The position numbers and the translations under genes were made by a program. This document shows, in pieces, positions 1-33,058 of a DNA stretch of 50,423 nt; within the stretch, counting starts at the first letter, position 1; each line of letters opens with the position of its first letter. The DNA is from a virus (Duplodnaviria > Caudoviricetes). The notes under the pieces were generated by a model that was not told where the DNA came from, did not search any database, and saw nothing but the letters and a program-made list of their open reading frames with translations. The stretch lies in the IMG/VR virus record IMGVR_UViG_3300035676_000592, positions 1-50,423 of that record. One strand, given 5' to 3'.

Positions 1-647
1 GTACTGTAGATCCGACTTTTAATTACGGAACTGGATTCAATGGGTATACTGTAGGTTTGATTTTACAAAGTGATGGTAAAATTATTATAGCAGGATATTT
101 TGATGATTATAACGGTAATACATATAATTCATTAATTAGATTAAATTCAGACGGAACAGTAGATGAAAGTTTTTATGTTGGAACTGGATTTAGTAACCCA
201 ATTTCGTCATCTTATAATCAAGTTAATTATCTATATCAATATTCAAACGGACAAATAGTTAGTTTTAATTGGGATTACTACTATAATGATACTCGATTAA
301 ATTATAATTTTTTAATTGAAGGAGATTCCATAACCCCAACACCAACACCAACACCATCTCCGACAGGTTCAATAGTAACAACACCTACACCTACTCCAAC
401 AAAAACAAGTTCACCAACACCATCAGTTACTCCAACCAATACACCTTCACCAACATTTATACCATACAGTGGAGTTGCGGTTAATCAACATTATGCATAT
501 ACGATAGAAATGTTGGGTGATTTTAGTGGAGGAACTGCACCAGCAAATGCAATCGCTCCACATCCAATTATGATAGGTAACGATGGAATACCATACGCAC
601 AAATGAATGCAATACAAATCGGAGGATTTGGCGGATTAAATAATTAA
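1..647 (+). CDS. 5'-truncated delta-60 repeat (DUF5122-like beta-propeller) protein with Pro/Thr linker and conserved C-terminal module
   Basis: Frame is open from the window edge: TVDPTFNYGTGFNG..LILQSDGKIIIAG..LIRLNSDGTVDESF (delta-60 pattern), then TPTPTP linker and YAYTIEMLGDFSGGTAP...GGFGGLNN. Confidence 0.8.
   Translation, partial: TVDPTFNYGTGFNGYTVGLILQSDGKIIIAGYFDDYNGNTYNSLIRLNSDGTVDESFYVGTGFSNPISSSYNQVNYLYQYSNGQIVSFNWDYYYNDTRLNYNFLIEGDSITPTPTPTPSPTGSIVTTPTPTPTKTSSPTPSVTPTNTPSPTFIPYSGVAVNQHYAYTIEMLGDFSGGTAPANAIAPHPIMIGNDGIPYAQMNAIQIGGFGGLNN
368..647 (+). repeat. Direct repeat copy 1 (~280 bp; linker plus C-terminal module)
   Basis: Aligns without gaps to 1759..2038 (offset 1391); 393..466 is identical to 1784..1857. 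Confidence 0.95.
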
Positions 648-658
648 AAAAAACAAAT

Positions 659-2038
659 ATGTCTAGTCTTAATTTAACATTTAATAGTATAGCAAATGCC
701 AACATATTGGTTGGAGATGCATCAGTAGTTGGAGATTGGAATACCTTCTTTGATTTACCTACTTATGGAACACCATTTAGTGCAGTTACAATAAGTGGAA
801 ATACCGTTCAGTTGTTTGGTGGGTCAAATATTGTATTAAATTATAACAATTATGTTGGTGGTTTATTCAACAGTGTCACGTCTTTATTATCAATTTACGA
901 CTACGCTGGATCTATTACGGAATTAATTGACCAAATATTTGTAGGTAGTGGATTGCTCGAATGTTATTTTAACTCTGTAACAAATATTGAAGGTCCGAAC
1001 GATGGAGGTGTGTTTAGTTCGGTAACAACAAAAATACACGCACCAAATTGTTCAAACATCGGATGGGGAGCGTTTCAATATTGTTCCGAATTATTTGATT
1101 TGGATTTAGATTTCAGTAATATTACATCCCTAACTGAAAATTATATATTTTATGAATGTTTATTATTACCTGATTCAGTTGTAAATCAATTTACTAGTTT
1201 AACATCTATCACTGGTCAATATTGTTTTCAATACTGCGAATCTTTAACTAATTTGAATTTACCTTCAGTTACAAATTTAGGTAGATATACATTTTCATAT
1301 TGTACAGGATTGACAACTTGTGATTTATCATCTGTTTTAACCTTGAATAATTTTTGTTTTTATCTTTGTACATCTCTTACGTCAATAACCCTGCCAAATT
1401 TGAAAAGTGCTGGTGTCAGTTGTTTTTCAACTTGTACATCTTTAACGTCAATAAGTTTTTTATCATTGACAGGTTTAAGTCAAAGTTGTTTTGCGGTTTG
1501 TAATTCTTTGACTACAATAGATTTACCTTTATGTACAAATTTAGGTGGTACAGTTGCTAATAACAATGTTTTCTTGGGCATTACTGGAAATACAATAAAT
1601 TTAACAATTCCTACCTCACTTATGACATGTAATGCTGGTAATCCTGACGGTGATATTCAATACCTACAAACAGCAAATACAGTCACAATAATTGAACCAA
1701 CACCCATACCAAGTCCAACACAAACACCAACACCAACACTTACTCCTTCATCAACAACTTCAATAGTTACAACACCTACTCCAACTCCAACAAAAACAAG
1801 TTCACCAACACCATCAGTTACTCCAACCAATACACCTTCACCAACATTTATACCATATACTGGTGTTCCGGTAAATAATTTTTATGCATATACAATAGAA
1901 ATTCTTGGAGATTTTAGTGGAGGAACTGCGCCGGCAAATGCAATTGCTCCTCACCCAATTATGATTGGAAATGATGGAATACCATACGCACAAATGAATG
2001 CAATACAAATCGGAGGATTCGGAGGATTAAATAATTAA
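659..2038 (+). CDS. BspA-type leucine-rich repeat (LRR_5) protein with Pro/Thr linker and conserved C-terminal module
   Basis: Repeats FxxCxSLTxIxLPxVTxLGxxxF; last ~92 aa nearly identical to those of the upstream gene. Confidence 0.85.
   Translation: MSSLNLTFNSIANANILVGDASVVGDWNTFFDLPTYGTPFSAVTISGNTVQLFGGSNIVLNYNNYVGGLFNSVTSLLSIYDYAGSITELIDQIFVGSGLLECYFNSVTNIEGPNDGGVFSSVTTKIHAPNCSNIGWGAFQYCSELFDLDLDFSNITSLTENYIFYECLLLPDSVVNQFTSLTSITGQYCFQYCESLTNLNLPSVTNLGRYTFSYCTGLTTCDLSSVLTLNNFCFYLCTSLTSITLPNLKSAGVSCFSTCTSLTSISFLSLTGLSQSCFAVCNSLTTIDLPLCTNLGGTVANNNVFLGITGNTINLTIPTSLMTCNAGNPDGDIQYLQTANTVTIIEPTPIPSPTQTPTPTLTPSSTTSIVTTPTPTPTKTSSPTPSVTPTNTPSPTFIPYTGVPVNNFYAYTIEILGDFSGGTAPANAIAPHPIMIGNDGIPYAQMNAIQIGGFGGLNN
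1759..2038 (+). repeat. Direct repeat copy 2 (~280 bp)
   Basis: Aligns to 368..647; differences in the module are mostly synonymous. Confidence 0.95.
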
Positions 2039-2059
2039 TAAACTCAAAAAAAATTAAAA

Positions 2060-2251
2060 ATGTCAGAATTAGTGCAACAAAAAGAAAGAAATCAAGTTGA
2101 CCCTCAACAAGTTTTAAACAGAAAAATTCAAAGAGCCGATGAAAATATTACAAAAATAACATCTCGGATTTCTGAAGCGACAGGAAGTGAAAAAGAAAGA
2201 CTTGAATCTTTATTAGAATTACATATAAATTATAAAAACAGTTTAGTATAA
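2060..2251 (+). CDS. Small helical hypothetical protein
   Basis: 63-aa ORF with an A-rich upstream region, filling the gap between genes. Confidence 0.7.
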   Translation: MSELVQQKERNQVDPQQVLNRKIQRADENITKITSRISEATGSEKERLESLLELHINYKNSLV

Positions 2252-2252
2252 A

Positions 2253-2495
2253 ATGGCTATAATTAAAGAAGAAATTAAAGGGACAAAAATTTTCAATGAA
2301 ATAAAATCTTCAAATATTAAAGGGTCTGTTTATGACACTGAATCGAAGACTTTATTAATTGAATTCAACAATGGGACTAAATATCAATATGATGGTGTTC
2401 CCCATCAAATATATACAAAATTTAGGATGGCTAAATCTCAAGGAGGTTTTTTTAGTAGTGATATTGCAAAAAACTACAAATACAAAAAACTTTAA
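2253..2495 (+). CDS. KTSC domain protein
   Basis: SSNIxxxxYDxxxxTLxIEFxNGxxYxYxGVPxxxYxxFxxAxSxGxFF pattern. Confidence 0.85.
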   Translation: MAIIKEEIKGTKIFNEIKSSNIKGSVYDTESKTLLIEFNNGTKYQYDGVPHQIYTKFRMAKSQGGFFSSDIAKNYKYKKL

Positions 2496-2516
2496 GTTTG
2501 AGTATATTTATTAAGG

Positions 2517-3260
2517 ATGAAGAATTTTAATAAAATCCTTGATAGTTTTTTAATTAAAGATACTCTCAACCCAAAGATATGGGAGAATCCATCTAATCCT
2601 GCCAAGGCAAGAATGAAATATGAGGTTAAATCGGCCTTATTAAGAATCGCTGATGAATTTATAGAATACTTGGGAGATGATGTTTTTGTTGATGACATCG
2701 TATTAACCGGATCTCTATCAAACTTCAATTGGTCGGAATATTCAGATTTTGACTTACACGTTCTTATAGATTTTTCACAATATGGAAAACAATCTGAATT
2801 ATATAAAGAATTGTTTGACCTTAAAAAACAATTATTCAACGATAAACACAATATAAAAATATTTGGATATGATGTTGAATTGTATGCTCAGGATATTACA
2901 GAAGAGCATACAGCGTCAGGTGTTTATTCGGTGATGGATGGTGAATGGGTTGAAGTTCCAAATAAAATGGAAAAAGATGTTGATCGTGATTTACTCAAAA
3001 CAAAAATAAAATCTTGGACAAAGAAAATAGATAACGTAATCGAACAATCTAAGAATGGTGAAGATGGAAAAAAATTAAAAGATATTAAAACTAAATTAAA
3101 GGAGTATAGAAAGTGTGGATTGGAAAAGGGAGGTGAATTGGCTTATGAAAATTTGGTTTTTAAATTCTTGAGAAGGTCGGGTCATATTGAAAAATTATTT
3201 AACACACAAAACAAACTTACAGATAAAGAATTATCGATTGAAAGAGAAAATAAGTTTTAA
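2517..3260 (+). CDS. Pol-beta superfamily nucleotidyltransferase
   Basis: IVLTGSLSNFNWSEYSDFDLHV (hGS-x9-DxD) plus a third acidic residue in VELY. Confidence 0.75.
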   Translation: MKNFNKILDSFLIKDTLNPKIWENPSNPAKARMKYEVKSALLRIADEFIEYLGDDVFVDDIVLTGSLSNFNWSEYSDFDLHVLIDFSQYGKQSELYKELFDLKKQLFNDKHNIKIFGYDVELYAQDITEEHTASGVYSVMDGEWVEVPNKMEKDVDRDLLKTKIKSWTKKIDNVIEQSKNGEDGKKLKDIKTKLKEYRKCGLEKGGELAYENLVFKFLRRSGHIEKLFNTQNKLTDKELSIERENKF

Positions 3261-3305
3261 TTATAACAATTAACAAAAAAGATATATTTATATATAAAAA
3301 TATAA

Positions 3306-3500
3306 ATGGCATTATATTCGGCGAATACGCATTACGACTACTCAATTGAAATATTGGGAGATTTTAGTGGAGGGACTGCACCGGCAGGACAAACCGCTCC
3401 TCACCCGATTGCGTATTCGGAAAAAAGAAATGCATCCGGTGATACAGTCATCGATTTGAGTGCAATAACACTGGGTGGATTCGATGGAATAAATAATTAA
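3306..3500 (+). CDS. Stand-alone copy of the C-terminal module; putative small virion or decoration protein
   Basis: HYDYSIEILGDFSGGTAPAGQTAPHP...AITLGGFDGINN* is homologous to the C-termini of the first two genes. Confidence 0.8.
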   Translation: MALYSANTHYDYSIEILGDFSGGTAPAGQTAPHPIAYSEKRNASGDTVIDLSAITLGGFDGINN

Positions 3501-3524: not shown

Positions 3525-4772
3525 ATGGGAAAGTTAAAACCAATAGGTAGTGAGAAATTGACAGGTGATGCTAAGATTAAAAGAATCATGGAAATTGCCA
3601 GATATAATGAAAACACTCCTTCATCATTAAATGAAACATCTAGAACAGAATATGGTTTAGATTTAGCCGACGGAAATAATTATCAAATAATTAAAGAAAG
3701 GCAAGGATACATTATAAAGAGAACCATATCTGAATCTCAAACTGAATATATTGAACCAATGAAGAATAGAAAATATTATTCTTCATATTCACAGGCGTTA
3801 AAAAGATTAAACTTACTTGCCGGTGAAATTAACAGATTAAATGAAAATGAAGAAGGTGTTTCTTTATTTGGAGAACAAAAGAAATTTGTTTTAAAAACAC
3901 CAAAACCTGCGGCACCTGACGCTGGTGAAATTCCTGCGCCTCCTATGGCACCACCTCCAGTTCCACAACCTGAATTGCCACCATCTCCAGACGCGGGTAT
4001 GCCTGCCGATTTAGGTGGTGAAGATATGGGTGGTGAAGATATGGGTGGTGAAGCAATGCCGGGTGGAGAAGAAATGGATATTGACATCGAAGGTGGAGAA
4101 GAAATACCTGTTGACCAAGAACCATCAGACAAAGAAGAAAGAGTTTCTTTCAGAACAATACAAAAGTTAACAGGAAAGTTAACTCAAAAGATTAGAGTGT
4201 TAGATAATGAGGAAGGAATGACTTCTGAAAATATCAAATATGTTATAAACATGGTTCTTTCTTCTTTGGATTTAAAATCTTTGTCTGAAGAAGATAAAGA
4301 AGATATCATATCTAAATTTGAGGAAGATTCTGAAGATTTGGAAGGTGATGACTTCGGAGGAGAAGATTTAACGGACGATTCTGAAGTTGAAGATATTCAA
4401 TCAGATATGGATGTTGAAATTCCTGTTGACCAAGAGATGGGAGAAAATTATAACGGAGCAATAATTGATAGCATATTTGGTGAATCCAAAATTGACAAAG
4501 TTCTTTCAAAATATTTTGAGTATTCCAAGAAAGAAATCATGGAATCACAAGAAAATAAATTAAGAAGGAAAGAAAGTGCTAAAAGAAGAGCCAACAGTAA
4601 AATGAAGATAGTTTCAAATCTTTGTGAAACAAAAGAACAACAGTTGGCGTCACAAAGATTTTTGGAAGAAAATAGTTCATTTGTTTTTGTTGGAAAAACA
4701 AACAAGTCAAACTTGGTTTTCGAGAATAAAAACAGACAAATTAAAATAACACCTAATGGACGTGTTCTATGA
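3525..4772 (+). CDS. Acidic/Pro-rich hypothetical protein, putative head-associated
   Basis: 415 aa with low-complexity PPP and GGEDM stretches and several LxE motifs; lies upstream of the terminase. Confidence 0.7.
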   Translation: MGKLKPIGSEKLTGDAKIKRIMEIARYNENTPSSLNETSRTEYGLDLADGNNYQIIKERQGYIIKRTISESQTEYIEPMKNRKYYSSYSQALKRLNLLAGEINRLNENEEGVSLFGEQKKFVLKTPKPAAPDAGEIPAPPMAPPPVPQPELPPSPDAGMPADLGGEDMGGEDMGGEAMPGGEEMDIDIEGGEEIPVDQEPSDKEERVSFRTIQKLTGKLTQKIRVLDNEEGMTSENIKYVINMVLSSLDLKSLSEEDKEDIISKFEEDSEDLEGDDFGGEDLTDDSEVEDIQSDMDVEIPVDQEMGENYNGAIIDSIFGESKIDKVLSKYFEYSKKEIMESQENKLRRKESAKRRANSKMKIVSNLCETKEQQLASQRFLEENSSFVFVGKTNKSNLVFENKNRQIKITPNGRVL

Positions 4773-7299: not shown

Positions 7300-9060
7300 G
7301 TGAATTCAAAAGAACAATTAATAATAGAAGTTACGAAGTGCATGAAGAATACTCCTTATGCACTTCGAACTTATTTACAGACATTTGATAATACAGTATC
7401 AAAATACGTCCCTTTAGATTTATTCCCAGACCAAGTTACACTTGTAGAGGATTATGAAAACTACAATGAAAATATTGCATTAAAATATAGACAAGCGGGA
7501 GTTTCAACAGTTACCGCAGCATGGGCATCAAAACGTTTAGTTTTTGCAAAAAAAACAAAGCCCGAAAAAATACTTATCATTGCAAACAAGTTAGACACCG
7601 CAGTAGAAATGGCGAATAAAGTTCGTTCATTTACTGAACAATGGCCTTCTTGGGTTGGTGTAGGGTTTTCACAAGAAAAAAATTCTCAAAGACATTTCAG
7701 GTTAACAAATGATTGTGAAGTAAAAGCAGTTGCAACATCAAAAGATGCACTTCGAGGTTATACCCCAACCATATTGATATTTGACGAAGCCGCATACATC
7801 GAGGCTGATGGTGATTTCTGGGCGGCTTGTATGGCCTCACTATCTACGGGTGGTAAAGTAATCGTTGTTTCCACCCCAAACGGATATGACCCAATTTATT
7901 ATGAAATATATGACCAAGCGTTAAGAAATTATAATAATTTCAAAGTAACAGAAATGTTTTGGTATAGAGACCCAAGATATACCAAAGATTTATATATGGT
8001 CAAAACAAATGATTTGGTTCATTTTTTACTAAATAGAGAACAATATACGGATAAAGATATAGTTGATTTATCGATGGAAAATCCGTATGAGAGAGATTTA
8101 GAAAATGTTAAAAATTTAATAGAACAAGGATATAAACCATGTTCCTCTTGGTTTGAGGGTATGGTTAAAAAACTAAAGTTTGATAGACGTAAAGTTGCAC
8201 AGGAATTGGAGTGTAATTTTTTGGGTTCAGGTGACAACGTATTCGATTCTGAACTAATGCAAAATATTGCTAAAAACCAACTGAGAGAACCACAAGGAAA
8301 AATGATGGGAGGTTCTCTTTGGATTTTCAAAGAACCTGAAAATGGTCATAAGTATGTTATGGGAGTTGACGTATCTCGTGGAGACTCTGAAGATTTTTCA
8401 TCCATAGAAATTATAGACTTTGATGAAAGAGAACAAGTTTTTGAATATGTTGGTAAGGTTCCACCCGACGTTCTAGCTGAGATTGCCTATAAGTGGGGCA
8501 TGTTGTATAACGCTTATTGTGTGATTGATTTAACTGGTGGTATGGGAGTTTCAACTGCAAGGAAAATGCAAGAAATGTCATATCCATGTGGATTCTATGT
8601 TGATGGTGTTGACACATCCAACAAGTGGAAATTTGACCCAAAAATGAATGAAAAAATTCCAGGAATAAATTTTAACAGCAAACGGGTTCAAATAATTTCG
8701 GCATTTGAAGAAGCGGTTAGACACGGGTTTAAAGTATATTCAAGTAGGTTGTATAATGAGATGAACACCTTTGTATATATCAACGGTAGACCAGATCACC
8801 AAAAGGGGCATCACGATGATTGTATTATGGGAATTTCGATGGCGTTGTATGTTGCCGAAAAATCTTTCCAATCTTTAGAGAAGGTAGTAAACCAAACAAA
8901 GTCGATGTTGAATTCTTGGACATCGGTCATGAATGAAAACAAAAATACCTCTGAATATTTCAACCCAATGATTCCTCAAATGGGTCGTCAGAATCCGATA
9001 AATCAAGGACCTACCAAAAAAGATTATCAACAATACGGATGGTTATTTGGTGTTAGGTAA
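7300..9060 (+). CDS. terL: Terminase large subunit (T4 gp17-like)
   Basis: KYRQAGVST (Walker A-like), IFDEAA (Walker B), STPNG, nuclease motifs GVDVSRG and HHDD; GTG start. Confidence 0.95.
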   Translation: MNSKEQLIIEVTKCMKNTPYALRTYLQTFDNTVSKYVPLDLFPDQVTLVEDYENYNENIALKYRQAGVSTVTAAWASKRLVFAKKTKPEKILIIANKLDTAVEMANKVRSFTEQWPSWVGVGFSQEKNSQRHFRLTNDCEVKAVATSKDALRGYTPTILIFDEAAYIEADGDFWAACMASLSTGGKVIVVSTPNGYDPIYYEIYDQALRNYNNFKVTEMFWYRDPRYTKDLYMVKTNDLVHFLLNREQYTDKDIVDLSMENPYERDLENVKNLIEQGYKPCSSWFEGMVKKLKFDRRKVAQELECNFLGSGDNVFDSELMQNIAKNQLREPQGKMMGGSLWIFKEPENGHKYVMGVDVSRGDSEDFSSIEIIDFDEREQVFEYVGKVPPDVLAEIAYKWGMLYNAYCVIDLTGGMGVSTARKMQEMSYPCGFYVDGVDTSNKWKFDPKMNEKIPGINFNSKRVQIISAFEEAVRHGFKVYSSRLYNEMNTFVYINGRPDHQKGHHDDCIMGISMALYVAEKSFQSLEKVVNQTKSMLNSWTSVMNENKNTSEYFNPMIPQMGRQNPINQGPTKKDYQQYGWLFGVR

Positions 9061-9096
9061 CTATTTATATTATTGAATAAATAGGTAAATTTCAGC

Positions 9097-10944
9097 ATGG
9101 CAGATAAAAATTTAACGGTTTGGCAAAGATTAACCAAAACCTTTGGCCCTAATTCTCTTCTTGACCAAGATTATCCTACTTTCACATTTGATAAAAAAGA
9201 ACTGTTAAGGACAGATAACAAACAGGATTACGAAAGAGAAAAATTACAGGCCCAACAAACATATTTTTTAGCATCACAATGGGCTAAAGTAGAAAATAAT
9301 TTATATTCCCAAGCAATTTATTATGAGCCGTCGAGATTATCGGCGCAATATGACTATGAATCGATGGAATATACTCCGGAAATATCGGCAGCATTGGACA
9401 TTTATGCCGAGGAATCGACAACAACAAATGAGGACGGATTCATATTACAGATTTATTCAGAGTCAAAGAGAATAAAATCAGTATTGGCGGATTTATTTAA
9501 TAATGCTCTGGATATAAACACAAACCTACCAATGTGGACAAGAAACACATGTAAGTTTGGTGACAACTTTGTCTATCTAAAATTGGACCCTGAAAAAGGA
9601 ATTGTCGGATGTCAACAATTACCGACAATTGAAATTGAACGTCATGAGGTTGGAGTTGCCAATAGGATATCTGTAGATATCACTAAAGAATTAGACCAAG
9701 ATAAAAAAGGACTTCATTTTACTTGGAAAAACAAGAATATGGAATTCCAATCTTGGGAAATAGCACATTTCCGATTATTGGGTGATGATAGAAAATTACC
9801 ATACGGAACATCAATGCTTGAAAAAGCAAGAAGAATTTGGAAACAACTTCTGTTATCTGAAGATGCGATGTTAATATATAGAACTTCAAGAGCACCTGAA
9901 AGAAGAATTTTCAAAGTATTTGTTGGTAATATGAATGATGATGATGTTGAGGCATATGTACAACGTGTTGCCAACAAGTTCAAAAGAGAACAAATTGTTG
10001 ATAGTAAAACAGGTAATGTTGATATGAGGTTTAACCAAATGGCGGTTGACCAAGATTTCTTTATTCCTGTTAGGGATCCAGCCGCTCCATCACCAATTGA
10101 CACTTTACCAGGGGCACAAAATCTTTCTGAAATCGCAGATATTGAATACATTCAGAAAAAAATGTTGACCGCTCTCCGAGTTCCTAAAGCGTTTTTAGGG
10201 TTTGAAGAAGTTGTCGGAGATGGAAAAAATCTCGCACTTCAAGATATACGATTTGCAAGAACGATAAATCGTATCCAAAAAAGTATGATTGCGGAATTAA
10301 ATAAAATTGCAATCATTCATTTGTTCTTATTAGGATTTGAGGACGAACTTTCTAATTTCACATTAGGCCTTACAAATCCTTCTACACAAGCGGACTTACT
10401 AAAAGTTGATATTTGGAAAGAAAAAGTTTTACTTTATAAAGATTTAGTTTCAGATCCAGGTAATGGTATTCAGGCGACTTCATCTACTTGGGCTAAAAAG
10501 CACATTTTCGGATGGTCTGACGAAGAAGTTAAACTTGATTTACAACAACAAAGAATTGAAAGAGCCGTTGGTGAAGAATTGAAGGCAACTGCCACAGTTA
10601 TAACCAAAACAGGTATATTCGATAATTTGGATAAATTATATGGTTCCACATCTGGCTCTACAGCACCGGCCGGAGGGGCAGAAGCACCACCTGAAGAGGG
10701 TGGTTTTGGAGGATTAGAGTTAGGAGGTGGTGCACCTCCACCGCCACCACCTGCACCTGGAGGAGAAGAGGCACCACCACCCCCACCGGGAGAAGGTGGT
10801 TTAACTCCCGAATCGAAAAATATGAGTTTAAATATATTACTAGAAAGTGATATAATTAAAGGAAATACGAATCTTGATTTAGGTATAGGACAAAAATCTT
10901 TAGGAGAAATTACCAAACAACTGAACAAGTTGTTAAATTCATAA
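9097..10944 (+). CDS. Portal protein (T4 gp20-like)
   Basis: PYGTSMLEKARRIWKQL.L.EDAMLIYRTSRAPERRIF and IDTLPGAQNL..I.DIEY motifs; Pro/Gly-rich tail. Confidence 0.93.
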   Translation: MADKNLTVWQRLTKTFGPNSLLDQDYPTFTFDKKELLRTDNKQDYEREKLQAQQTYFLASQWAKVENNLYSQAIYYEPSRLSAQYDYESMEYTPEISAALDIYAEESTTTNEDGFILQIYSESKRIKSVLADLFNNALDINTNLPMWTRNTCKFGDNFVYLKLDPEKGIVGCQQLPTIEIERHEVGVANRISVDITKELDQDKKGLHFTWKNKNMEFQSWEIAHFRLLGDDRKLPYGTSMLEKARRIWKQLLLSEDAMLIYRTSRAPERRIFKVFVGNMNDDDVEAYVQRVANKFKREQIVDSKTGNVDMRFNQMAVDQDFFIPVRDPAAPSPIDTLPGAQNLSEIADIEYIQKKMLTALRVPKAFLGFEEVVGDGKNLALQDIRFARTINRIQKSMIAELNKIAIIHLFLLGFEDELSNFTLGLTNPSTQADLLKVDIWKEKVLLYKDLVSDPGNGIQATSSTWAKKHIFGWSDEEVKLDLQQQRIERAVGEELKATATVITKTGIFDNLDKLYGSTSGSTAPAGGAEAPPEEGGFGGLELGGGAPPPPPPAPGGEEAPPPPPGEGGLTPESKNMSLNILLESDIIKGNTNLDLGIGQKSLGEITKQLNKLLNS

Positions 10945-10966: not shown

Positions 10967-11665
10967 ATGACCTTTGGACAAATTAAAACCAGTATAGAAA
11001 ATAATCTTTTGGAATCATATAAGAATGACTCTGATTTCAAAAAAATTTTAAGGGAATTCAAATCGAATATCTTGAATGATAAAACTATGTCAAAATTATA
11101 TTCGTTGTATGACCAACTAAGCACTCCTCAAAATTTAACAGAACAAGAGGCTAAAGATTTTTTAAATGAAGGTATTAATTTGATTCAATCAATCATACCT
11201 AAAATTAGAGAAACAAGGTCACTCAACGAGGATTTGGACAATAATTACAAAGATATTGATACTTTGGTTTACCCGAACAATATTAATATTGCTGAAAGAG
11301 TATCAAGTAGAAAAAATATTATATCTGTTTTAACAACTAAAAAAGAACAAGTTCAAGAATCTATCAACATTCCTTTGACTTCAATGGTTAAAGTTGCCAA
11401 TCAGACATTGAATAGTTATTTGGAAACTTTGGATGAATCTTCCAAGAAAGAATTAATAAAAGTTATATCTGAAGATTCTGAAAAATTAAAGGTTAAGTTT
11501 GATGTTTTGAAAGAAATGACCCTTGAAAAGTTAACCAAAATCAAAGAACAGGATATTGATACAGATACCAAAAACAAAGTTTTGGAGACTATTAATAAAA
11601 TAGAACTCGAAGAATTCAATCAATTAAATTATATTAAGTTGAAAAACTTAGAAAAATCAATTTGA
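10967..11665 (+). CDS. Hypothetical helical protein of the head module
   Basis: ORF between portal and protease; ATG at 10967 preferred over GTG at 10961; many LxE motifs. Confidence 0.7.
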   Translation: MTFGQIKTSIENNLLESYKNDSDFKKILREFKSNILNDKTMSKLYSLYDQLSTPQNLTEQEAKDFLNEGINLIQSIIPKIRETRSLNEDLDNNYKDIDTLVYPNNINIAERVSSRKNIISVLTTKKEQVQESINIPLTSMVKVANQTLNSYLETLDESSKKELIKVISEDSEKLKVKFDVLKEMTLEKLTKIKEQDIDTDTKNKVLETINKIELEEFNQLNYIKLKNLEKSI

Positions 11666-11845
11666 TTGTTTCTTTTTTTGTGTGTAAATTGCTTTGAGTA
11701 TTTGATTCCTTCTCTTGACGGATTTTTTCACATACTCTTTTTTTTCAACTAACTTTTGAGTTTGTTTAGTTTTAATAACTTTGGATTTCAGAGTCTTTAA
11801 TGCTCTATCCAAATTTTCCCCATTTTTTACTTCTACTATTATCAT
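11657..11845 (-). CDS. rpsU: Phage-encoded ribosomal protein bS21
   Basis: MIIVEVKNGENLDRALKTLKSK...KEYVKKSVKRR..ILKAIYTQ matches the bS21 pattern; 62 aa from ATG at 11845. Confidence 0.88.
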   Translation of the reverse strand: MIIVEVKNGENLDRALKTLKSKVIKTKQTQKLVEKKEYVKKSVKRRNQILKAIYTQKKKQSN

Positions 11846-14990: not shown

Positions 14991-16811
14991 ATGGGAGCAT
15001 TATTAGAATCAGGTCTCGTTGGTAATATAGGATTAAAACACCTTAAAGTTATCAAAGAAGACACAATTAACAAGTGGGACAAATTAGGTTTCCTTGAAGG
15101 TCTTAAAGGCCATATGAGAGAAAATGTTGCGCAGTTGTATGAAAACCAAGCATCATATTTGATAAACGAAGCAGCATCAACTTCTGATACAGGTTCTTTC
15201 GAAACTGTTGTATTTCCAATTGTTAGAAGAGTATTCTCAAAACTTTTGGCAAATGACATCGTTTCAGTTCAAGCTATGAACTTACCTATCGGTAAATTAT
15301 TCTACTTTGTACCTAATATTCAGAATTATACTGACGCAAGTACAGCATCAAATGGTATTCATTACCCACCTTATGGTGCACCTGGTGGACCATCTAGTCC
15401 AAATGATGGTTATAATTATAATCAAGGTAGAGACCTTTATGATAGATTCTATGAAGGTAATGAACCAGCATTAGACCCTCCAGGTCTTTTCGATTACTCA
15501 AAAGGTGAGTTTTCTGCAATCACAGGTACTGCGGTAACTGCGGTTTGGGATAATACTACTTTGAATTTAGTAACATCAGGATATACCGCCGGTGATGGAC
15601 CTGATGGAGGTTCGTATAGAAAAGTTTTGATTATTATGTCAGGTTTTGGATCTGATGGTGCAGGTAAATTAATTGGTCCTGATGGTAATCCAATGGATAC
15701 TGAATCATTCTTATCAGATTTGACAATCTATGGTAATACCGACAACTTAAATGTTGCAAGTTTGGGAAGCGGTCCATTCTTATTCAGAGTTGTAACTCAA
15801 AGATATGGTAAGGGTATTGTTCAATATGGTAGTGTAAATGACACTTCAGTATTCCCTAATGATAGAACTGATGGAGGTCAGTGGGATAATATTTGTACAG
15901 CAAATGGTCAAATCTACTTAGAAGTTGACCTTTCAACACCCACATGTATTAGCTGTGGTGGTTCAATCGATGGTTATACAGGTGTAACGTTCTCATCAAA
16001 TACTGATAATAACAATGCGTTTATCCCTGTTTACAGATTATACAAAAACTTGGAATTTGAAGACAGAATTGGTGAAGTTTCTTTTGACCTTATGTCTGTT
16101 ACAGTTTCAGTTACTGAAAGAAAGTTAAGAGCTCAATGGTCACCTGAAATGGCACAAGACGTTGCGGCTTTCCACAATATCGACGCAGAGGCAGAACTTA
16201 CAGCTTTATTGTCTGAACAAGTTGCGGCTGAAATCGATAGAGAGATTTTGAGAGACCTTAGAAAAGGAGCGGCTTGGAATCTTAGATGGGATTACAATGG
16301 TTGGAAGAGATTAGGTTCAAATGCAGTTCCTTACACTCAAAAAGACTGGAACCAAACGTTGATTACTGCAATCAACCAAATTTCAGCTCAGATTCACAAA
16401 TCTACTTTGAGAGGAGGTGCTAACTGGATCGTTGTTTCTTCAGAAATTAGTGCAATTTTTGATGATTTGGAATACTTCCACGTATCAAATGCTGCTCCTG
16501 AACAAGACCAGTACAATATGGGTATTGAAAGAGTAGGTACTTTGGCAGGTAGATATCAAGTATATAGAGACCCTTATTTCCCACCTAACCAAGTGTTGTT
16601 GGGTCACAAAGGAACATCATTACTTGACACAGGTTATATTTACGCACCATACGTTCCATTACAACTTACACCTACAATGTATAACCCATTCAACTTTACA
16701 CCAATCAAAGGTATCATGACAAGATACGCGAAAAAAATGGTAAACAACCGCTTTTATGGCCGCATTACCGTTGATGGTGTTAGAACATTTGATTTAAGAG
16801 AATTGAGATAA
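14991..16811 (+). CDS. Major capsid protein (T4 gp23-like)
   Basis: VSVQAMNLPIGKLFY, RKLRAQWSPEMAQDV.A.H.IDAEAEL..LLSEQVAAEIDREIL, YAPYVPL and GIMTRY motifs. Confidence 0.96.
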   Translation: MGALLESGLVGNIGLKHLKVIKEDTINKWDKLGFLEGLKGHMRENVAQLYENQASYLINEAASTSDTGSFETVVFPIVRRVFSKLLANDIVSVQAMNLPIGKLFYFVPNIQNYTDASTASNGIHYPPYGAPGGPSSPNDGYNYNQGRDLYDRFYEGNEPALDPPGLFDYSKGEFSAITGTAVTAVWDNTTLNLVTSGYTAGDGPDGGSYRKVLIIMSGFGSDGAGKLIGPDGNPMDTESFLSDLTIYGNTDNLNVASLGSGPFLFRVVTQRYGKGIVQYGSVNDTSVFPNDRTDGGQWDNICTANGQIYLEVDLSTPTCISCGGSIDGYTGVTFSSNTDNNNAFIPVYRLYKNLEFEDRIGEVSFDLMSVTVSVTERKLRAQWSPEMAQDVAAFHNIDAEAELTALLSEQVAAEIDREILRDLRKGAAWNLRWDYNGWKRLGSNAVPYTQKDWNQTLITAINQISAQIHKSTLRGGANWIVVSSEISAIFDDLEYFHVSNAAPEQDQYNMGIERVGTLAGRYQVYRDPYFPPNQVLLGHKGTSLLDTGYIYAPYVPLQLTPTMYNPFNFTPIKGIMTRYAKKMVNNRFYGRITVDGVRTFDLRELR

Positions 16812-16863: not shown

Positions 16864-16915
16864 ATTTATTTAAGTAATAATAGTTTTTTTGGTTAAAAGG
16901 TTTATATTTATAAAT

Positions 16916-17599
16916 ATGAAAAAATATATTCCATCACAAGAAGAAATTGAGATTATTCTTAAAATGTATAATGAAGATTTACTTGGGTGTCAGTTAATTT
17001 CAGAAAAAATAGGTCTAAATAAACAACAGGTATTAAGAATTCTTAAAGAAAATGGTGTTATTTTAGGTCCTTCAGGTAGAAGGTTTACTGGAGGTAAAAA
17101 AGTTGCGGATAAAAAATATCGTGAAAAAAATAAAGAAAAATTAAGTAATAATCATAAAAAATGGTATATAGAAAATAAAGAAAAATGGAACCAATACATT
17201 ACTGAATACCGAGAAAAAAATATTGACAAAATCAGAGAGGGAAAAAGAAATTATGAGAAAACACGAAAAAATAATGACCCACTTTATAAACTAATAAATA
17301 ATTTCAGAACTGCGATATATCAAGTATTAAAAGAAAACAATGTTCAAAAAAACGGTCATTATTTTGAGATTCTTAAATACTCACCAAACGATTTAATTGA
17401 CCATTTAGAAAGACAATTTACTGATGGTATGACATGGGAAAATTATGGGAAATGGCATGTTGACCATATTCAACCAATTTCATCGTTCAATATTAAAGAA
17501 ATTGGTGATGAAGAATTTATAAAATGTTGGTCTCTAAAAAATTTACAACCATTGTGGGGTGAGGACAATATTCGTAAATCTAATAAGATTATAAATTAA
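16916..17599 (+). CDS. Free-standing HNH homing endonuclease
   Basis: WENYGKWHVDHIQPISSF...NLQPLWGEDNIRKSNK, N-terminal helical/HTH-like and basic region; ATG at 16916. Confidence 0.85.
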   Translation: MKKYIPSQEEIEIILKMYNEDLLGCQLISEKIGLNKQQVLRILKENGVILGPSGRRFTGGKKVADKKYREKNKEKLSNNHKKWYIENKEKWNQYITEYREKNIDKIREGKRNYEKTRKNNDPLYKLINNFRTAIYQVLKENNVQKNGHYFEILKYSPNDLIDHLERQFTDGMTWENYGKWHVDHIQPISSFNIKEIGDEEFIKCWSLKNLQPLWGEDNIRKSNKIIN

Positions 17600-20201: not shown

Positions 20202-20653
20202 GGTGCTGAACATTTTTTCTTTCCATCAGTTCCTGGCATTTTTCCTTTGCATACCTGCACTCCGTATCCATTTGAATATGCACTTGGGTGAACTTTAAAT
20301 TTCGCCTTAGCGGCAGCCAAACCCCTAGCACATAACTTAGTCCCCGCCTTTTTTCTACCTTCACTTAAATCTTCATAGTCTGTATATTCAGATTCTTTGT
20401 TTTTTTCGTTCATAATAAAATCAAAAACTTGGTCCATATTAACTTTGGCTTCGGCGATATGATCATCGGCCCAGTCGTGACCATTAGTTAAGATTTCATC
20501 AATCATATCTCGGTCCATTTCGAGTAACATTTCACATTGTCTTTTTATTTGTTCCAAGTTACTGAAAAACATATAATTTGCTTGTTCTTGTTCTGACAAT
20601 ACTTTTTTAACTAGTCTATTTATGTCAGATTCTTTTAATTTGATTGTTCTCAT
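20192..20653 (-). CDS. Hypothetical protein with LxE leader and PSAY motif
   Basis: MRTIKLKESDINRLVKKVLSEQ leader; KAKFKVHPSAYSNGY. Confidence 0.75.
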   Translation of the reverse strand: MRTIKLKESDINRLVKKVLSEQEQANYMFFSNLEQIKRQCEMLLEMDRDMIDEILTNGHDWADDHIAEAKVNMDQVFDFIMNEKNKESEYTDYEDLSEGRKKAGTKLCARGLAAAKAKFKVHPSAYSNGYGVQVCKGKMPGTDGKKKCSAPYC

Positions 20654-22152
20654 TTTTTATTTACGATTTGAAAGGTTAATTCTCTTTTATAAGTATCTTT
20701 TTCTCCGGAAGTATTCACTTGAATATCAACATAATATTGATTTGGGATTTTATCTCTCATATCAAAAATAAAATAGTATTCATTTGGGGTTCTATTTATT
20801 GGTGTCCAATCTTGGACTTGAACTTCGGTGGTTCCTTCTTTAACATATACTCTATAAAATGCTGATATATTTTGTAGGAGTTGTTGTCCTGTGTAGGCTT
20901 TTTTGATTGTCACTCCGACTTTTCGTATATCGCTATTCAGTATTTTTTCATTTTGTAGGATTCCATAAAAATCAAATCCAAACTTTTGTGGTTCTTTGGA
21001 TAAAGAACCGATTTGGATTCCGGCATTATATTGTTGTAGAGTAAATTGATTGGTTACATTTGGGATGGCCTCTCCGTTAATTTCTAAATTTGACCAAGTG
21101 TCGTAAAACATACAAGGGGTTGGGTAAGCGGTAAATCCATTTGGAACAATAACTTCATAAACTCCTTTGGTTATTAAACAAGTTGGTAGGTTGTTCATTC
21201 CTGCAACAATGGTTCCGTTTCTATCTTCTATGGTAACTGTGGGTAAATTATCTAAATTAACCAAGTCACCGTTTTGATAAACATATAAAAATAGTCTGTT
21301 TGTTTGATTCTTTAAGAATAGATTTCTATCATCTTGGATTAGGTCATTGTAATTAGTCAATAAGTAAGGTTGATAGAATGTTTGTGTGCTTTTTGAGAAG
21401 AATGCAACGCTGTAACTATCGGTAAGTCCTGTGATGTTCTCAACATCAGGAACATATGCAATTCCCCAACCTGTAACACCTGTTATTGTTCCGTTTAATA
21501 TTCCATTGATTTCATCGGTCATATCCATATCGATGTCCTCATTTCCTAGTTCAAAGTGTTGCCTTGTAACTATTGTGAGGCCAGAATAATTAACTGAACC
21601 TTCATTTTTGTTGTTGTATATTCCGGGTTGTGACCAACTTGATGTTGTGGTTGTTTGATACCAGTTTGATGGTCGTGTTGAAAATGCTCTTTCATCAACG
21701 TATGTTAATGGTGATTGACCCCCTTGAGCACTGTTTTTGGATAAGTTAAAATCATTATAATCATAACCTACACCTTCGTCCCATAATTGTGGATCACCTG
21801 TGTCTCCTGAGGTTTTTGGGATTCTGAATAGGATTAAATCAAATGAGGTTGCACGTCTCCTTGAATTGGTCATGAACGTATTTAAAAGTTCATTATCAAA
21901 AGAGGATGTGTTTGTCATCTTTAAGGTATGGGTCATACCTGTTGTGCATCCTGTTGAAATAACACCTGAACTTATGTTTTCACGCAATAAGTCCAAACCC
22001 AAATCGAAGATATATCTTGTGTAACCATAGTTTGGGACAATGAAATCCGATGCACCAAAATTCAATTCAATAACAGGATTCCTTGCAGTGTTGACATAGG
22101 AATTTGACGTTATTGTATTGTTCTTATTAATATAGGAACGTAAAATTGACAT
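20650..22152 (-). CDS. Putative virion structural protein
   Basis: 500 aa, beta-rich composition, next to the spike-like gene, TATTTAT motif upstream. Confidence 0.6.
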   Translation of the reverse strand: MSILRSYINKNNTITSNSYVNTARNPVIELNFGASDFIVPNYGYTRYIFDLGLDLLRENISSGVISTGCTTGMTHTLKMTNTSSFDNELLNTFMTNSRRRATSFDLILFRIPKTSGDTGDPQLWDEGVGYDYNDFNLSKNSAQGGQSPLTYVDERAFSTRPSNWYQTTTTSSWSQPGIYNNKNEGSVNYSGLTIVTRQHFELGNEDIDMDMTDEINGILNGTITGVTGWGIAYVPDVENITGLTDSYSVAFFSKSTQTFYQPYLLTNYNDLIQDDRNLFLKNQTNRLFLYVYQNGDLVNLDNLPTVTIEDRNGTIVAGMNNLPTCLITKGVYEVIVPNGFTAYPTPCMFYDTWSNLEINGEAIPNVTNQFTLQQYNAGIQIGSLSKEPQKFGFDFYGILQNEKILNSDIRKVGVTIKKAYTGQQLLQNISAFYRVYVKEGTTEVQVQDWTPINRTPNEYYFIFDMRDKIPNQYYVDIQVNTSGEKDTYKRELTFQIVNKK

Positions 22153-27070: not shown

Positions 27071-27877
27071 TTATGCTGTTTCTTGATTATAGTTTATTTC
27101 CCTGTCATTAGTGAAGAAATATTCTTTCTTCGCTGATTGAATCCAAAACTTCACTTCATCTTCAGTCATGACTTCTTCACCGTGTTTGTAATTCCAAAAA
27201 ATTGACCCTTCCCTTAAATTTATATGTTTATAACCTAATCTTGGGATTGTCATAATATTTACAGAATTATAGGTCAACCTCAATAAAAATTCATAAATGA
27301 ATGTTAATTTCATAGATGGTTTAAACCCACCAAAATCTTCAACCAATTTTTTCTTGAACACAGAACCCGCAGTTTGAAAATTTTGATAACTTTGTAAAGT
27401 TTCATTAGTTAAATACCCGAGTTCTTGTGAAAAATTTGCGGCAAATGTTGCTTCATTTGTAAATCCGACAAAAACACCTTTATCGTTTGTATCCACAACA
27501 ACAGGTAGAAACATATCAACACTAGGATATGATTCAATATATTTTTTTACGTTTTTGAACCAAATTTTTGAATACTCATCGTCAAACTCAAAGAGAGAAA
27601 CCCACTCAGATTTTGAATTTTCAATTCCATAATTTATTTGGTCACAATAGTTCGGACCTTTATCCCATAGTAATTTTTGAACATTTAAATCTCCAAAATC
27701 ATAAGAATTAATGAAGTCAATTAAAGATTCTTCTTGAGTATGGACTACAACCAACTCATTAACGGGTACTAGTTGTTCTTTTATTGATTGGATTGACTTA
27801 TCAAAAAATTCTTGAAAGTCTCTAACTTTCGATGATTTAATTGGTAAAATAATTGAAACTGGTACTATATTTTCCAT
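27071..27877 (-). CDS. Glycosyltransferase, GT2-like (GT-A fold)
   Basis: VSIILPI...INYGIENSKSEWVSLFEFDDEY...GGFKP; ATG at 27877. Confidence 0.8.
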   Translation of the reverse strand: MENIVPVSIILPIKSSKVRDFQEFFDKSIQSIKEQLVPVNELVVVHTQEESLIDFINSYDFGDLNVQKLLWDKGPNYCDQINYGIENSKSEWVSLFEFDDEYSKIWFKNVKKYIESYPSVDMFLPVVVDTNDKGVFVGFTNEATFAANFSQELGYLTNETLQSYQNFQTAGSVFKKKLVEDFGGFKPSMKLTFIYEFLLRLTYNSVNIMTIPRLGYKHINLREGSIFWNYKHGEEVMTEDEVKFWIQSAKKEYFFTNDREINYNQETA

Positions 27878-27878
27878 A

Positions 27879-28931
27879 TTAATTTTCAGTTTTAGATAAT
27901 TGCTCTTCGAAAGAATCTGCTCTCTGATTAAAATACGTATCAAAAAGAGTAATTATTTTCGTATCGAAAAGGGATTTATTTGAATACATTTCTGATGTCT
28001 TTTTCATTTCATCATATAAATTTGGATTAATATTATCCTCTAACCAATTTTGGATAAAATCTGCAATAACATCAATCATGATAGTTTTATCGTTTATCCA
28101 CATACCATTTTCATCACTCATCCATTCAGGAACTATATTTGGAATTTTACCAATAACCGGAACTTCTGATTTCATGGATTCTAATGGGAAGGTTCCAAAA
28201 CCGCAATCATCATCTATCCAAACGCTCACAAAACAATCTCTTAAAGATTTAGCAAATTCAGACTCGGATAATCCTCGTAAATCTCTGAAAGTGAACCATC
28301 GATATTGTGGAAATTTAAGATAAAATGCTTTAATAATATTAATTGTGTCACTATGGTCTTTTGTGTGAATTCCTATTAACGGCATTGGAGGGACTCCCTT
28401 AGAGTTGAAATTTTCAGATATATAAGGTTCTACAATATCAAAAGTATTCTGTCTCATTATTTTTTCAATGTATTCCTTTTGTTTGATTGTTGTGGTAATA
28501 CATTTATAAAACCCAAACTGACTCCAACTCTGACCTGGTTGTAATGTTTCTAACATGTAAGCGTAAGATTGTGTTAACACAATTTTGGCACAAGGTAGTT
28601 TCTTAACTTGGTCCATAACATAACCAAAAATTTCAGGAATAATTAAAAAATCATCAGGAGTTACTTCCAAGTTTTGACCTTCAATTGATTCATGAGGTAG
28701 GTCATTATACTCGTCACCTAACCAAGTATTAACACTTGTATAATCATTACGCTCATGTAATATTATAGGGTTGAATCCATTGTTTTTAAGGGTTAAGGCC
28801 ATTTGGTAAATGTATCTAACAGATGCCTTTGCATTACCTTTTGTATCCTGAACTAAAAAATATATTTTTGATTTTTTGTCCCTTAAATTTTGTATTGATA
28901 ACTTAACTTTATCGTTTAATTCGTTTGCCAT
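27879..28931 (-). CDS. Glycosyltransferase, GT4-like (GT-B fold)
   Basis: DDCGFGTFPLESMKSEVPVIG; DFLIIPEI. Confidence 0.75.
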   Translation of the reverse strand: MANELNDKVKLSIQNLRDKKSKIYFLVQDTKGNAKASVRYIYQMALTLKNNGFNPIILHERNDYTSVNTWLGDEYNDLPHESIEGQNLEVTPDDFLIIPEIFGYVMDQVKKLPCAKIVLTQSYAYMLETLQPGQSWSQFGFYKCITTTIKQKEYIEKIMRQNTFDIVEPYISENFNSKGVPPMPLIGIHTKDHSDTINIIKAFYLKFPQYRWFTFRDLRGLSESEFAKSLRDCFVSVWIDDDCGFGTFPLESMKSEVPVIGKIPNIVPEWMSDENGMWINDKTIMIDVIADFIQNWLEDNINPNLYDEMKKTSEMYSNKSLFDTKIITLFDTYFNQRADSFEEQLSKTEN

Positions 28932-28934
28932 AGT

Positions 28935-29213
28935 TTAATAGTGATTAATTAATCCTTTATTTAATAGTGTATTAAAAGCAATACCAAATGGTAATGAAGT
29001 TTTAGGTGCCGACTTTAATCCAAGTCTTTCGTCATAACCCTCCTCATTTTCGGTTAAAATTGTATCTAACAACATTTTAACTAGTTCGAATTTTACCAAA
29101 TTAATTCTGGCTTCGGTGTCACCAGAATCTACATAATTTAAATCATTAATTTCAAGGTATTCTTCAACCTTGTCCAAATCAATGAAATAGTTTTCTCCAA
29201 GAACATTTATCAT
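28935..29213 (-). CDS. Hypothetical protein
   Basis: 92-aa ORF coupled to the upstream gene. Confidence 0.7.
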   Translation of the reverse strand: MINVLGENYFIDLDKVEEYLEINDLNYVDSGDTEARINLVKFELVKMLLDTILTENEEGYDERLGLKSAPKTSLPFGIAFNTLLNKGLINHY

Positions 29214-29860
29214 AATATACTTTCAATTACTGTTTTAAATTCTTTGAATTTAGAAATTTCAAATTCAGTTTTTATACCCTCATTATATGGTGTTATATAT
29301 TTTATAACAATTTTGTTTTGAGGATGATTTAATAATAAATTAGGATTGGCAGTAAGTAAAATGTCTATTGAGTCCCACATTGATTTTATTGTCGATTCAC
29401 TATAAAATTTTACAGTTTCCACCAAACATCCAAATTTAGAAATAAAAAAAAGTGACGCGGGTTTAGATTTACCAATTTCATCCGATACAATTAAAATATC
29501 ATGTCTTTCTCTCAAATCTATGTAGAAATCATTAAAGTCATTCATACTTGAAATTTCAATCGAACCCGCATGTCCAAATATTTCCATAGTATGTTCTTTA
29601 TACATAAAATCATATAACTCGTCATCATTCCTAAATGCAAAGTGAGATATTAAATCTAAACTTGTAATGTCACTCTTTATTTCATATTTAAACATTTCTT
29701 CAACTGTAATTGAATCTGACGTGTTTCCTGATATATCAAGATTAAATTGTTTTTCCGGTGCAACATCATATACGTTGTCAATCAAATTTTTCTCATAAAC
29801 TTGTTTAAATTTACCAAGAGTATCCCGCAAAACTCCGTTCAATTCAACACCAATTCTCAT
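29210..29860 (-). CDS. HAD/5'(3')-deoxyribonucleotidase-like protein with degenerate catalytic motifs
   Basis: MRIGVELNGVLRD (normally IxxDxDGVLxD) and DILLTANP (normally D.LIDD.P). Confidence 0.6.
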   Translation of the reverse strand: MRIGVELNGVLRDTLGKFKQVYEKNLIDNVYDVAPEKQFNLDISGNTSDSITVEEMFKYEIKSDITSLDLISHFAFRNDDELYDFMYKEHTMEIFGHAGSIEISSMNDFNDFYIDLRERHDILIVSDEIGKSKPASLFFISKFGCLVETVKFYSESTIKSMWDSIDILLTANPNLLLNHPQNKIVIKYITPYNEGIKTEFEISKFKEFKTVIESIL

Positions 29861-30591
29861 TCTTCGTATTTTTTTAGAATTTGAGATATTAATGGGTTTC
29901 TTACAACATCTTCAGGAAGAAATTCAAAAGTCCCTATATCACTCATATTTTGGAATTTATGTAACGCATCCCACAAACCTGTTTGTGTTTTATCTTTATG
30001 TCTGTCAAATTGTTCCAAGTCACCCGAGATAAAAAATTTAGAATTAAATCCAATTCTTGTTAACAATAGTTTCATCTGACTTGGAGTTGAATTTTGAGCC
30101 TCCTCGAATATTAATATTGAATTATCAATATTCATCCCTCTCATGTAGGCCAAAGCAAAAACTTCAATAGCTTCAATCTCCTTCAATTTTTCTCTTGTTT
30201 CCTTACCGATAATTTTGTTCATCAAATAATATGACGGGAAAATATACGGGTCTAATTTTTCCTCAACACCACCTGGTAAACTCCCAAGTTTTTCTTCAGC
30301 CTCTACTGCGGGTCTGACTATTATTATTTTTTCATAGGGTGTTTCAGGATCCGCTAATAAGTCTAATGCACATTTCATTGCAATATAACTTTTACCAACA
30401 CCGGCAGGACCGGAACAGATGGTAATTTGGTTATTTGATAATGTTTCATAATAAGTTTTCTGACTATCAGAAAGAAATTTTTGTTTAGTTTTTTTCTTAA
30501 CTAATGAAGTAATTAATTGTTTTTTGTTTTTAACTACAATTTCATCACCAACTGGTGTTGGAATTGGTTGTTTTCTTGTTGATTTGTTCAT
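29857..30591 (-). CDS. phoH: PhoH family ATPase
   Basis: GPAGVGKSY, RPAVEAEEKLGSLPG, YMRG, EEAQN, GDLEQ.D and DVVRNPLI motifs. Confidence 0.93.
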   Translation of the reverse strand: MNKSTRKQPIPTPVGDEIVVKNKKQLITSLVKKKTKQKFLSDSQKTYYETLSNNQITICSGPAGVGKSYIAMKCALDLLADPETPYEKIIIVRPAVEAEEKLGSLPGGVEEKLDPYIFPSYYLMNKIIGKETREKLKEIEAIEVFALAYMRGMNIDNSILIFEEAQNSTPSQMKLLLTRIGFNSKFFISGDLEQFDRHKDKTQTGLWDALHKFQNMSDIGTFEFLPEDVVRNPLISQILKKYEE

Positions 30592-33055: not shown

Positions 33056-33058
33056 ATA

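Follow-up and report, generated by a model that had tools for sequence, protein, structure and literature searches.

Why does one small protein module stand alone in one phage gene and also form the C-terminal end of two neighbouring genes with unrelated front parts? The question is raised by the start of the virus record IMGVR_UViG_3300035676_000592 (Caudoviricetes). We call the whole stretch analysed, positions 1 to 50,423, the window. An earlier reading of its letters, the original prediction, described three such genes and took the module for a virion-docking domain. We recovered all three as + strand open reading frames (ORFs) that end in the module. It had described a Thr/Pro linker in both fusions, and a Thr/Pro/Ser linker is found in each. 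The module genes are the following.

3..647, + strand: extra module gene 1, cut at its 5' end by the window edge; propeller repeat (delta-60/DUF5122), Thr/Pro linker and module (~462-644).
659..2038, + strand: extra module gene 2; passenger of BspA-type leucine-rich repeats (LRR), Thr/Pro linker and module (~1853-2035).
369..647, + strand: linker-plus-module tail, a duplicate of 1760-2038 (90% DNA identity).
3306..3500, + strand: core-slot gene, the bare module of 64 amino acids (aa), from ORF and homolog comparison.

The searches below make the module, a domain of about 55-60 residues, a core gene family of jumbo phages that encode ribosomal protein bS21. It is very probably an anchor at some site of the virion. 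We also lean, less firmly, towards a Hoc-like anchor of low copy number on the virion surface, probably bound to the head. This reading draws on a late-type upstream motif, the neighbourhood of head genes, tethered cargo of extracellular or cysteine-rich type, the lack of an export signal and the strictly terminal position of the domain. The module would dock at low copy on the virion exterior, probably on the head, and display whichever domains are fused ahead of it. Most phages carry a single such gene, bare or loaded. Passengers are acquired, lost and stacked, probably through recombination that the DNA of the Thr/Pro linker and the module would assist. A minority, including the window phage, have duplicated the anchor and would so display a mixture of domains.

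Extent of the module family and its passengers

The stand-alone module proteins measure 55-69 aa overall. When longer proteins were sought with a profile, 371 of 7,999 scored candidates matched, and the best 120 of these 371 all end exactly at the final residue of the module (120/120). An exhaustive search of 1.84 billion representatives at 50% identity gave 162 matches; the module is terminal in 146 of the 150 listed. The strict C-terminal position asked for by the original prediction is thus supported, with the module at the end of nearly all homologs found. The other four listed were excluded from the end and architecture counts: in P0192 and P0219 the match is internal to a long unrelated protein, and P0177 and P0195 continue with another tail after the front half of the module. 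A DNA-pattern scan demanded a stop codon after the motif, so it does not count as evidence of terminal position. Among 267 module proteins, the C-terminal residues are NN in 236 and NS in 25. The very last residue is variable (N, S, R, Y, W or A).

The original prediction did not recognise the module as a described family, and no significant match was found in Pfam, PHROG, NCBIfam or PDB sequences. For 145 modules the best Pfam match had E 0.011, and the best PHROG match, of one member, E 0.008. Profiles of 62 and 145 modules gave weak matches to PDB sequences, antibody chains first, at E 0.054 or worse. A Foldseek comparison of the module monomer model with viral models gave nothing at E 0.001. 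In the ESM Atlas, the module and its 415-aa neighbour matched hypothetical viral clusters only, and GenBank phages matched neither, apart from a single chance match at E 7. We found no description of the module in the searched literature, which was largely without subscription journals.

The module is confined to phage contigs. The sole match among 185,579 prokaryote genomes is a phage-like scrap, a 1.6-kb contig bearing the same phage neighbour gene. By a simple hydropathy rule, a signal-peptide-like start occurs in 1/197 proteins and a terminal membrane-helix-like end in 1/197. The NCBIfam sorting-signal models have no match on the module, so no known secretion signal was recognised in it. 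Bacterial C-terminal sorting signals (the C-terminal domain of the type IX secretion system, PEP-CTERM, sortase) combine an N-terminal signal peptide with a C-terminal motif or membrane helix; hydropathy, NCBIfam and the 185,579 prokaryote genomes did not reveal these features in the module. Dockerin, another C-terminal docking tag, is a duplicated calcium-binding repeat that binds a cohesin. No dockerin family is among the matches listed (25 of 31 weak Pfam families, 145 modules), and no internal duplication is visible in the module alignments.

The family has been tabulated before. Here and below, published sources are cited for the portions of them that were covered. In Chen et al. 2022 the family is fam01 (Table S2) or fam016 (Tables S6-S8), because the gene at -8 from bS21 on contig L263 of Table S2 carries the module (PMC9723584). 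It is present in 19/20 bS21 genomes and in 0/2 outgroups (PMC9723584, Table S7). In the tables it is without a pVOG or Pfam domain, some members are auto-labelled mucin or adhesin-like, and the main-text portions covered do not mention it (PMC9723584). The published family possibly also includes Thr/Pro-rich proteins without the module (PMC9723584).

We classified the 208 module proteins longer than 85 aa with our own profiles; the labels CysA, CysB and ILEV are ours. At least six kinds of passenger domain occur, in mixed combinations. The diversity of passengers therefore goes well beyond the two in the window. CysA stands alone in 93 proteins, twice in 15, with an unknown part in 9, with CysB in 6 and with LamG in 2. 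ILEV is present alone in 10, with CysB in 10 and with CysA in 3. The other classes are LamG (9), LRR (6), CysB (5), propeller (2) and three single larger mixes. The rest are 19 linker-only or short fragments and 16 unclassified proteins. Pfam confirms the passengers LRR_5, Laminin_G_3 and DUF5122. Such passengers may act as adhesins.

The commonest passenger, CysA, is a domain of ~75 aa with four nearly invariant cysteines. AlphaFold models it as a small beta-barrel, with a predicted local distance difference test (pLDDT) of 80-90. The model of CysA plus module has no clear match among known structures (best VIA Z 4.1, Tudor domains). Foldseek gave E 0.3 or worse, with similar folds in unnamed phage proteins; so weak a match is no proof of a new fold. 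Two second module genes, in L124 and L168 (602 and 922 aa), encode long chains of CysA-like repeats beside a shorter module gene. One of these chains has a propeller-like insert.

The 40 residues before the module are rich in Thr, Pro and Ser in 145/208 long proteins. Such a linker is missing from the LamG fusions and from many remote members. The LRR of the window is present in 25 other viral loci and lacks the module in 25/25, therefore cargo and anchor travel separately. In L099-L123, a BspA-type LRR with a conserved NPDGDIQYL end stands behind varied N-terminal leaders, on many aquatic viral contigs. This suggests that other anchor systems exist for this cargo.

How many module genes does a phage carry, and in which place? 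The first scan covered the best 80 of 160 IMG/VR loci, many of them near-copies. One module copy lies within 10 kb in 80/80 loci (28 bare, 51 fused, 1 cut). A motif scan that included remote members gave 78 distinct flanked contigs out of at least 124 matches; L125 and L127 were left out, being the same contigs as L124 and L126. Here 71/78 contigs have one copy and 7/78 have two. The bare module is retained in 35/78, and free and fused forms occur together in 2 (L126 and L185). The four records rated complete have a single copy each, two bare and two fused. The original prediction had expected a mix of free and fused forms as the rule. These counts do not bear this out, and a filler-plus-fusion scheme is a minority state.

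The state of the gene also changes between relatives. On a terminase tree of 50 rows, from which L073, genes cut at the 5' end and loci lacking a full terminase are excluded, the bare or fused state needs 9 changes, 7 of them forced by well-supported branches. In one sister pair, L040 is bare and L049 is fused.

The surroundings are conserved. In the first scan, the 415-aa gene lies directly downstream of the module slot in 80/80 loci, and a nucleotidyltransferase-like gene directly upstream in 76/80. In the motif scan, 53 of the 78 contigs have the module in the usual slot before the terminase run and 6 have it directly after the capsid gene, so the proposed closeness to head genes holds. In 16/78 it lies a few kb beyond the capsid gene on the opposite strand, and 3 are unclear. 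In the window, the slot is surrounded by these features.

2253..2495, + strand: KTSC-domain gene (Pfam), a conserved neighbour lying two genes upstream of the slot where the module usually is.
2517..3260, + strand: nucleotidyltransferase-like gene (NTP_transf_2 E 0.0014, below cut-off; phrog_36119).
3282..3291, + strand: putative late-promoter motif TATATTTATA, ~20 nt before the free module gene.
3525..4772, + strand: conserved acidic protein of 415 aa with no assigned function (locus comparison, ESM Atlas).

The product of the nucleotidyltransferase-like gene measures ~245 aa in most relatives and 470-710 aa in several (L008, L024, L041, L139, L255). This gene may also acquire extra domains.

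Putative docking site, copy number and fold

A TATTTAT motif had been described upstream of the free gene. It is present 21 nt before the ATG, at 3285; the + strand has its next copy at 9062, past the terminase. No TATTTA motif of its own was found before the 659-2038 gene. In the window the motif precedes 13/56 genes, including those for the portal, the protease and the likely scaffold. Among intact module genes checked, 79/81 have TATTTA within 60 nt upstream, nearly always ~20 nt before the start. The motif is a putative late promoter.

Transcripts bear on the copy number. Relative to transcripts of the capsid gene, those of the family gene amount to 1.7-6.5%, 2.7-6.4% and 0-12.5% in three Lake Rotsee phages, as judged from genes assigned by family and position, not by sequence, and with mRNA a rough proxy for copies (PMC9723584, Table S8). 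Transcription of the family gene is seen in samples that also show it for the capsid gene (PMC9723584, Table S8). Such levels fit a low-copy structural protein and disfavour a filler with one copy per subunit. Cementing proteins of the Soc/gpD type are present at about one copy per capsid subunit. The abundant free form of the original prediction agrees poorly with these values (0-12.5% of the capsid gene).

The fold is predicted in outline. Low-confidence models and covariation suggest hairpins only. In 349 sequences, covariation gives two antiparallel ladders and contacts from the PHP motif to the terminal GGxNGLNN. High variability marks the tip of the first hairpin (GSFSGGT, CxxC and others). 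In the predicted arrangement of two beta-hairpins, the GGxNGLNN tail would fold back onto the PHP motif. From this we infer a two-hairpin mini-domain, which a partner or further copies of itself would stabilise, and whose free C-terminus would lie inside the fold or inside the partner.

Several observations weigh against a head-bound anchor. AlphaFold gives the module alone a pLDDT of 57 and a predicted template modelling score (pTM) of 0.24, a low confidence, and 43-63 per block for the module behind CysA. Of the top 30 covarying pairs, 6 and 7 fall in the two ladders, while 25 column shuffles give at most 2, but the windows were picked post hoc and the shuffles ignore relatedness. CysA, the commonest passenger, is without an assigned function. 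Both locus samples are redundant (best 80 of 160 and 80 of at least 124). In two other phages, the likely genes of the slot family have zero reads while the capsid gene is transcribed (PMC9723584, Table S8). Finally, in 16/78 contigs the module gene follows a homolog of the window gene 20650-22152, which may indicate the tail.

A virion anchor on the tail, baseplate, neck or vertex, instead of the capsid lattice, is unlikely. Transcripts at 0-12.5% of the capsid gene suit a few tens of copies, and those 16 contigs place the module within a block of probable tail genes, whose identity we presume and which has no significant database match. In these contigs the module gene lies two genes from an ORF that presumably resembles a baseplate-hub protein, by its motif; it has no database match. 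The WD40 matches of the gene 20650-22152 span ~40 residues only and do not identify it. Against a site away from the lattice, the module gene comes directly after the capsid gene in 6/78 contigs and before the terminase-portal run in 53/78.

The poor monomer models would also suit a module that mainly self-oligomerises, or forms fibres, and bundles its passengers while another component attaches them. The end of the chain, a beta-hairpin after a proline-rich stretch, resembles the foldon. However, a bare module has nothing to bundle and is kept in 28/80 and 35/78 loci, and there is no fibritin-type match in Pfam or PDB. We consider this quite improbable. A tag for sorting or conjugation by an enzyme, such as the adjacent nucleotidyltransferase, or for targeting to the infected-cell surface, is very improbable. 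The free C-terminus (NN or NS in 261/267 proteins) and the nucleotidyltransferase upstream in 76/80 loci of the first context agree with it. Against it, the module gene lies away from the nucleotidyltransferase in 22/78 contigs, the last residue varies, and covariation suggests a folded domain over a linear tag. Signal peptides and membrane anchors are also absent by the hydropathy rule (1/197 each), with no match to NCBIfam sorting signals. The scheme with a high-copy filler like Soc or gpD, and with minority fusions always beside the free form, should be regarded as highly improbable. The window has one free and two fused genes, and L126 and L185 have one of each. But a single copy is found in 71/78 contigs and in 4/4 complete records, two of those fused only, and the transcripts are far under those of the capsid gene.

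How does the preferred low-copy surface anchor compare with known systems? The anchor of Hoc has 96 aa, with a four-stranded sheet and three helices, and binds the centre of the capsid hexamer (PMC10385173). Like the module, it is a conserved C-terminal anchor behind variable N-terminal domains, on a gp23-type capsid (PMC10385173). Muldoon and PG7 have two Hoc genes with different cargo each, and the authors already propose a natural functionalisation of the capsid (PMC10385173). In contrast, the module has 55-60 aa and is predicted all-beta. Profiles of 62 and 145 modules gave no homology to Hoc up to E 10 among PDB sequences. Hoc cargo is mostly Ig-like domains in strings, and the PG7 anchor is N-terminal (PMC10385173). 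The module is C-terminal and often bare, and its Thr/Pro linkers bear Cys-rich, LamG, LRR or propeller cargo.

Tentaclins are likewise grouped by a C-terminal domain that is conserved and is presumed to hold variable binding domains on the virion (PMC10743442). They differ in an Ig-like anchor of ~100 aa, C-type lectin heads, hypermutation by diversity-generating retroelements (DGR) and their occurrence in gut phages (PMC10743442). The free module proteins have 55-69 aa, and no C-lectin or Ig Pfam match was found in the module-bearing proteins among the 51 and 83 scanned. Soc and gpD are small capsid proteins that tolerate fusions (PMC7602432). Their fusions are engineered, whereas natural fusions of the module are common. 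Moraphages were set aside, since the portions of their description that were covered do not mention bS21 (PMC12619734).

The idea of an anchor with cargo is then not new (Hoc, tentaclins). The module family, the switching between bare and loaded states and the combinatorial cargo appear undescribed in the searched literature. A wider picture is doubtful. There, the whole clade of abundant freshwater jumbo phages would practise combinatorial display on a plug-in anchor unrelated to Hoc, with close relatives swapping and stacking passengers through the linker-anchor DNA that they share and mosaic particles made from 2-3 anchor genes. Mucin-like Thr/Pro tethers, O-glycosylated by the glycosyltransferase cluster of the phage itself, would form glycoprotein tentacles on the head.

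The low-copy anchor would be a testable function for a core gene so far left without annotation in widespread uncultured phages, whose predicted hosts are freshwater Bacteroidetes. An origin of anchor-plus-cargo display separate from that of Hoc is suggested, with the anchor smaller and the cargo more varied. The slot is a fast-switching locus and may reflect the way in which these phages attach to hosts or particles. A C-terminal tag of 60 residues would be a compact display handle, provided that it binds tightly.

The duplicated copies and the gene content of the window

The propeller of the 3-647 gene matches DUF5122 in Pfam (E 1.6e-15) and TIGR02608 (E 5.6e-11, under its whole-protein cut-off). 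The 659-2038 gene encodes 459 aa and matches LRR_5 in Pfam (E 8e-28). The two fused tails (369-647 and 1760-2038) are identical in 85/90 residues and in 90% of 279 bases, which indicates a duplication. Their codon differences are 19 synonymous and 5 non-synonymous. So the duplicated tail looks to be under purifying selection, judging from these differences. The free module shares 52% identity with the fused tails. Eighteen further free homologs match it at E 3e-31 to 4e-12, far beyond chance.

In four public runs, which come from three studies, contigs span the junctions in separate pieces; none covers the entire stretch, and one of the four runs is possibly the sample of the window itself. 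The bridged pieces are propeller to linker (runs X1 and X4), first module to LRR start (X4), LRR to linker (X1 and X3) and the complete free gene (X1 and X3). A misassembly of the three module copies is judged unlikely. Some contigs of X1 and X3 join position 819 to 339, from inside the LRR gene back to the Thr/Pro linker. The joint may point to strains whose LRR-module gene is different or shorter. In databases, relatives of that gene measure 353 to 1002 aa.

The nearest relative, L019, has the bare module gene only, therefore the extra module genes of the window are a lineage-specific addition. A further ORF sits with them in the stretch missing from L019.

2060..2251, + strand: ORF of 63 aa, no relative found in the IMG/VR scan.

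It is unchanged in the metagenome contig L248, which is possibly not independent.

The window is a fragment of a T4-like freshwater jumbo phage encoding bS21. Pfam and PHROG scans found T4-like terminase, portal and protease genes and a gp23-type capsid gene, all in the window.

7300..9060, + strand: terminase large subunit (Pfam, PHROG).
9097..10944, + strand: T4-like portal protein (Pfam, PHROG).
11657..11845, - strand: ribosomal protein bS21, the group marker (Ribosomal_S21 E 1.4e-11; PMC9723584).
12418..13137, + strand: prohead protease, S77 (Pfam, PHROG).
14991..16811, + strand: Gp23-like major capsid protein with a variable insert at ~110-350, a candidate docking partner (Pfam, GenBank comparison).

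The bS21 gene lies between portal and protease. Phage-encoded bS21 has been published for this group, on the reverse strand inside the region from terminase to capsid gene, in myoviruses of 293-331 kb with predicted hosts in Bacteroidetes (PMC9723584). The window is grouped with these phages because its bS21 gene has the same strand and place. The closest GenBank capsid proteins show 41-46% identity across about half of the length. About 240 residues of the capsid protein (about 110-350) fall outside the T4-type gp23 match and are more variable among relatives than the rest. They are likely an outer domain and are a candidate docking surface for the module.

Directly after the capsid gene stands an endonuclease VII-like gene (16889-17599, PHROG scan), which only some relatives have. 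A cluster of sugar genes on the - strand (27071-41633) encodes a GDP-mannose dehydratase, an epimerase, a NodZ-like protein, two exostosin/GT47-like proteins, GT2/GT4 glycosyltransferases and two FkbM methyltransferases. Genes of this kind have been interpreted as remodelling the host surface (PMC9723584). Alternatively, those of the window may glycosylate Thr/Pro linkers on the virion. Further on, 44387-48412 and 48437-50423 encode two long cysteine-rich proteins with domains strung on Thr/Pro linkers. The product of the first is without the module, and the second gene is cut by the window end. These two proteins may use a different anchor.

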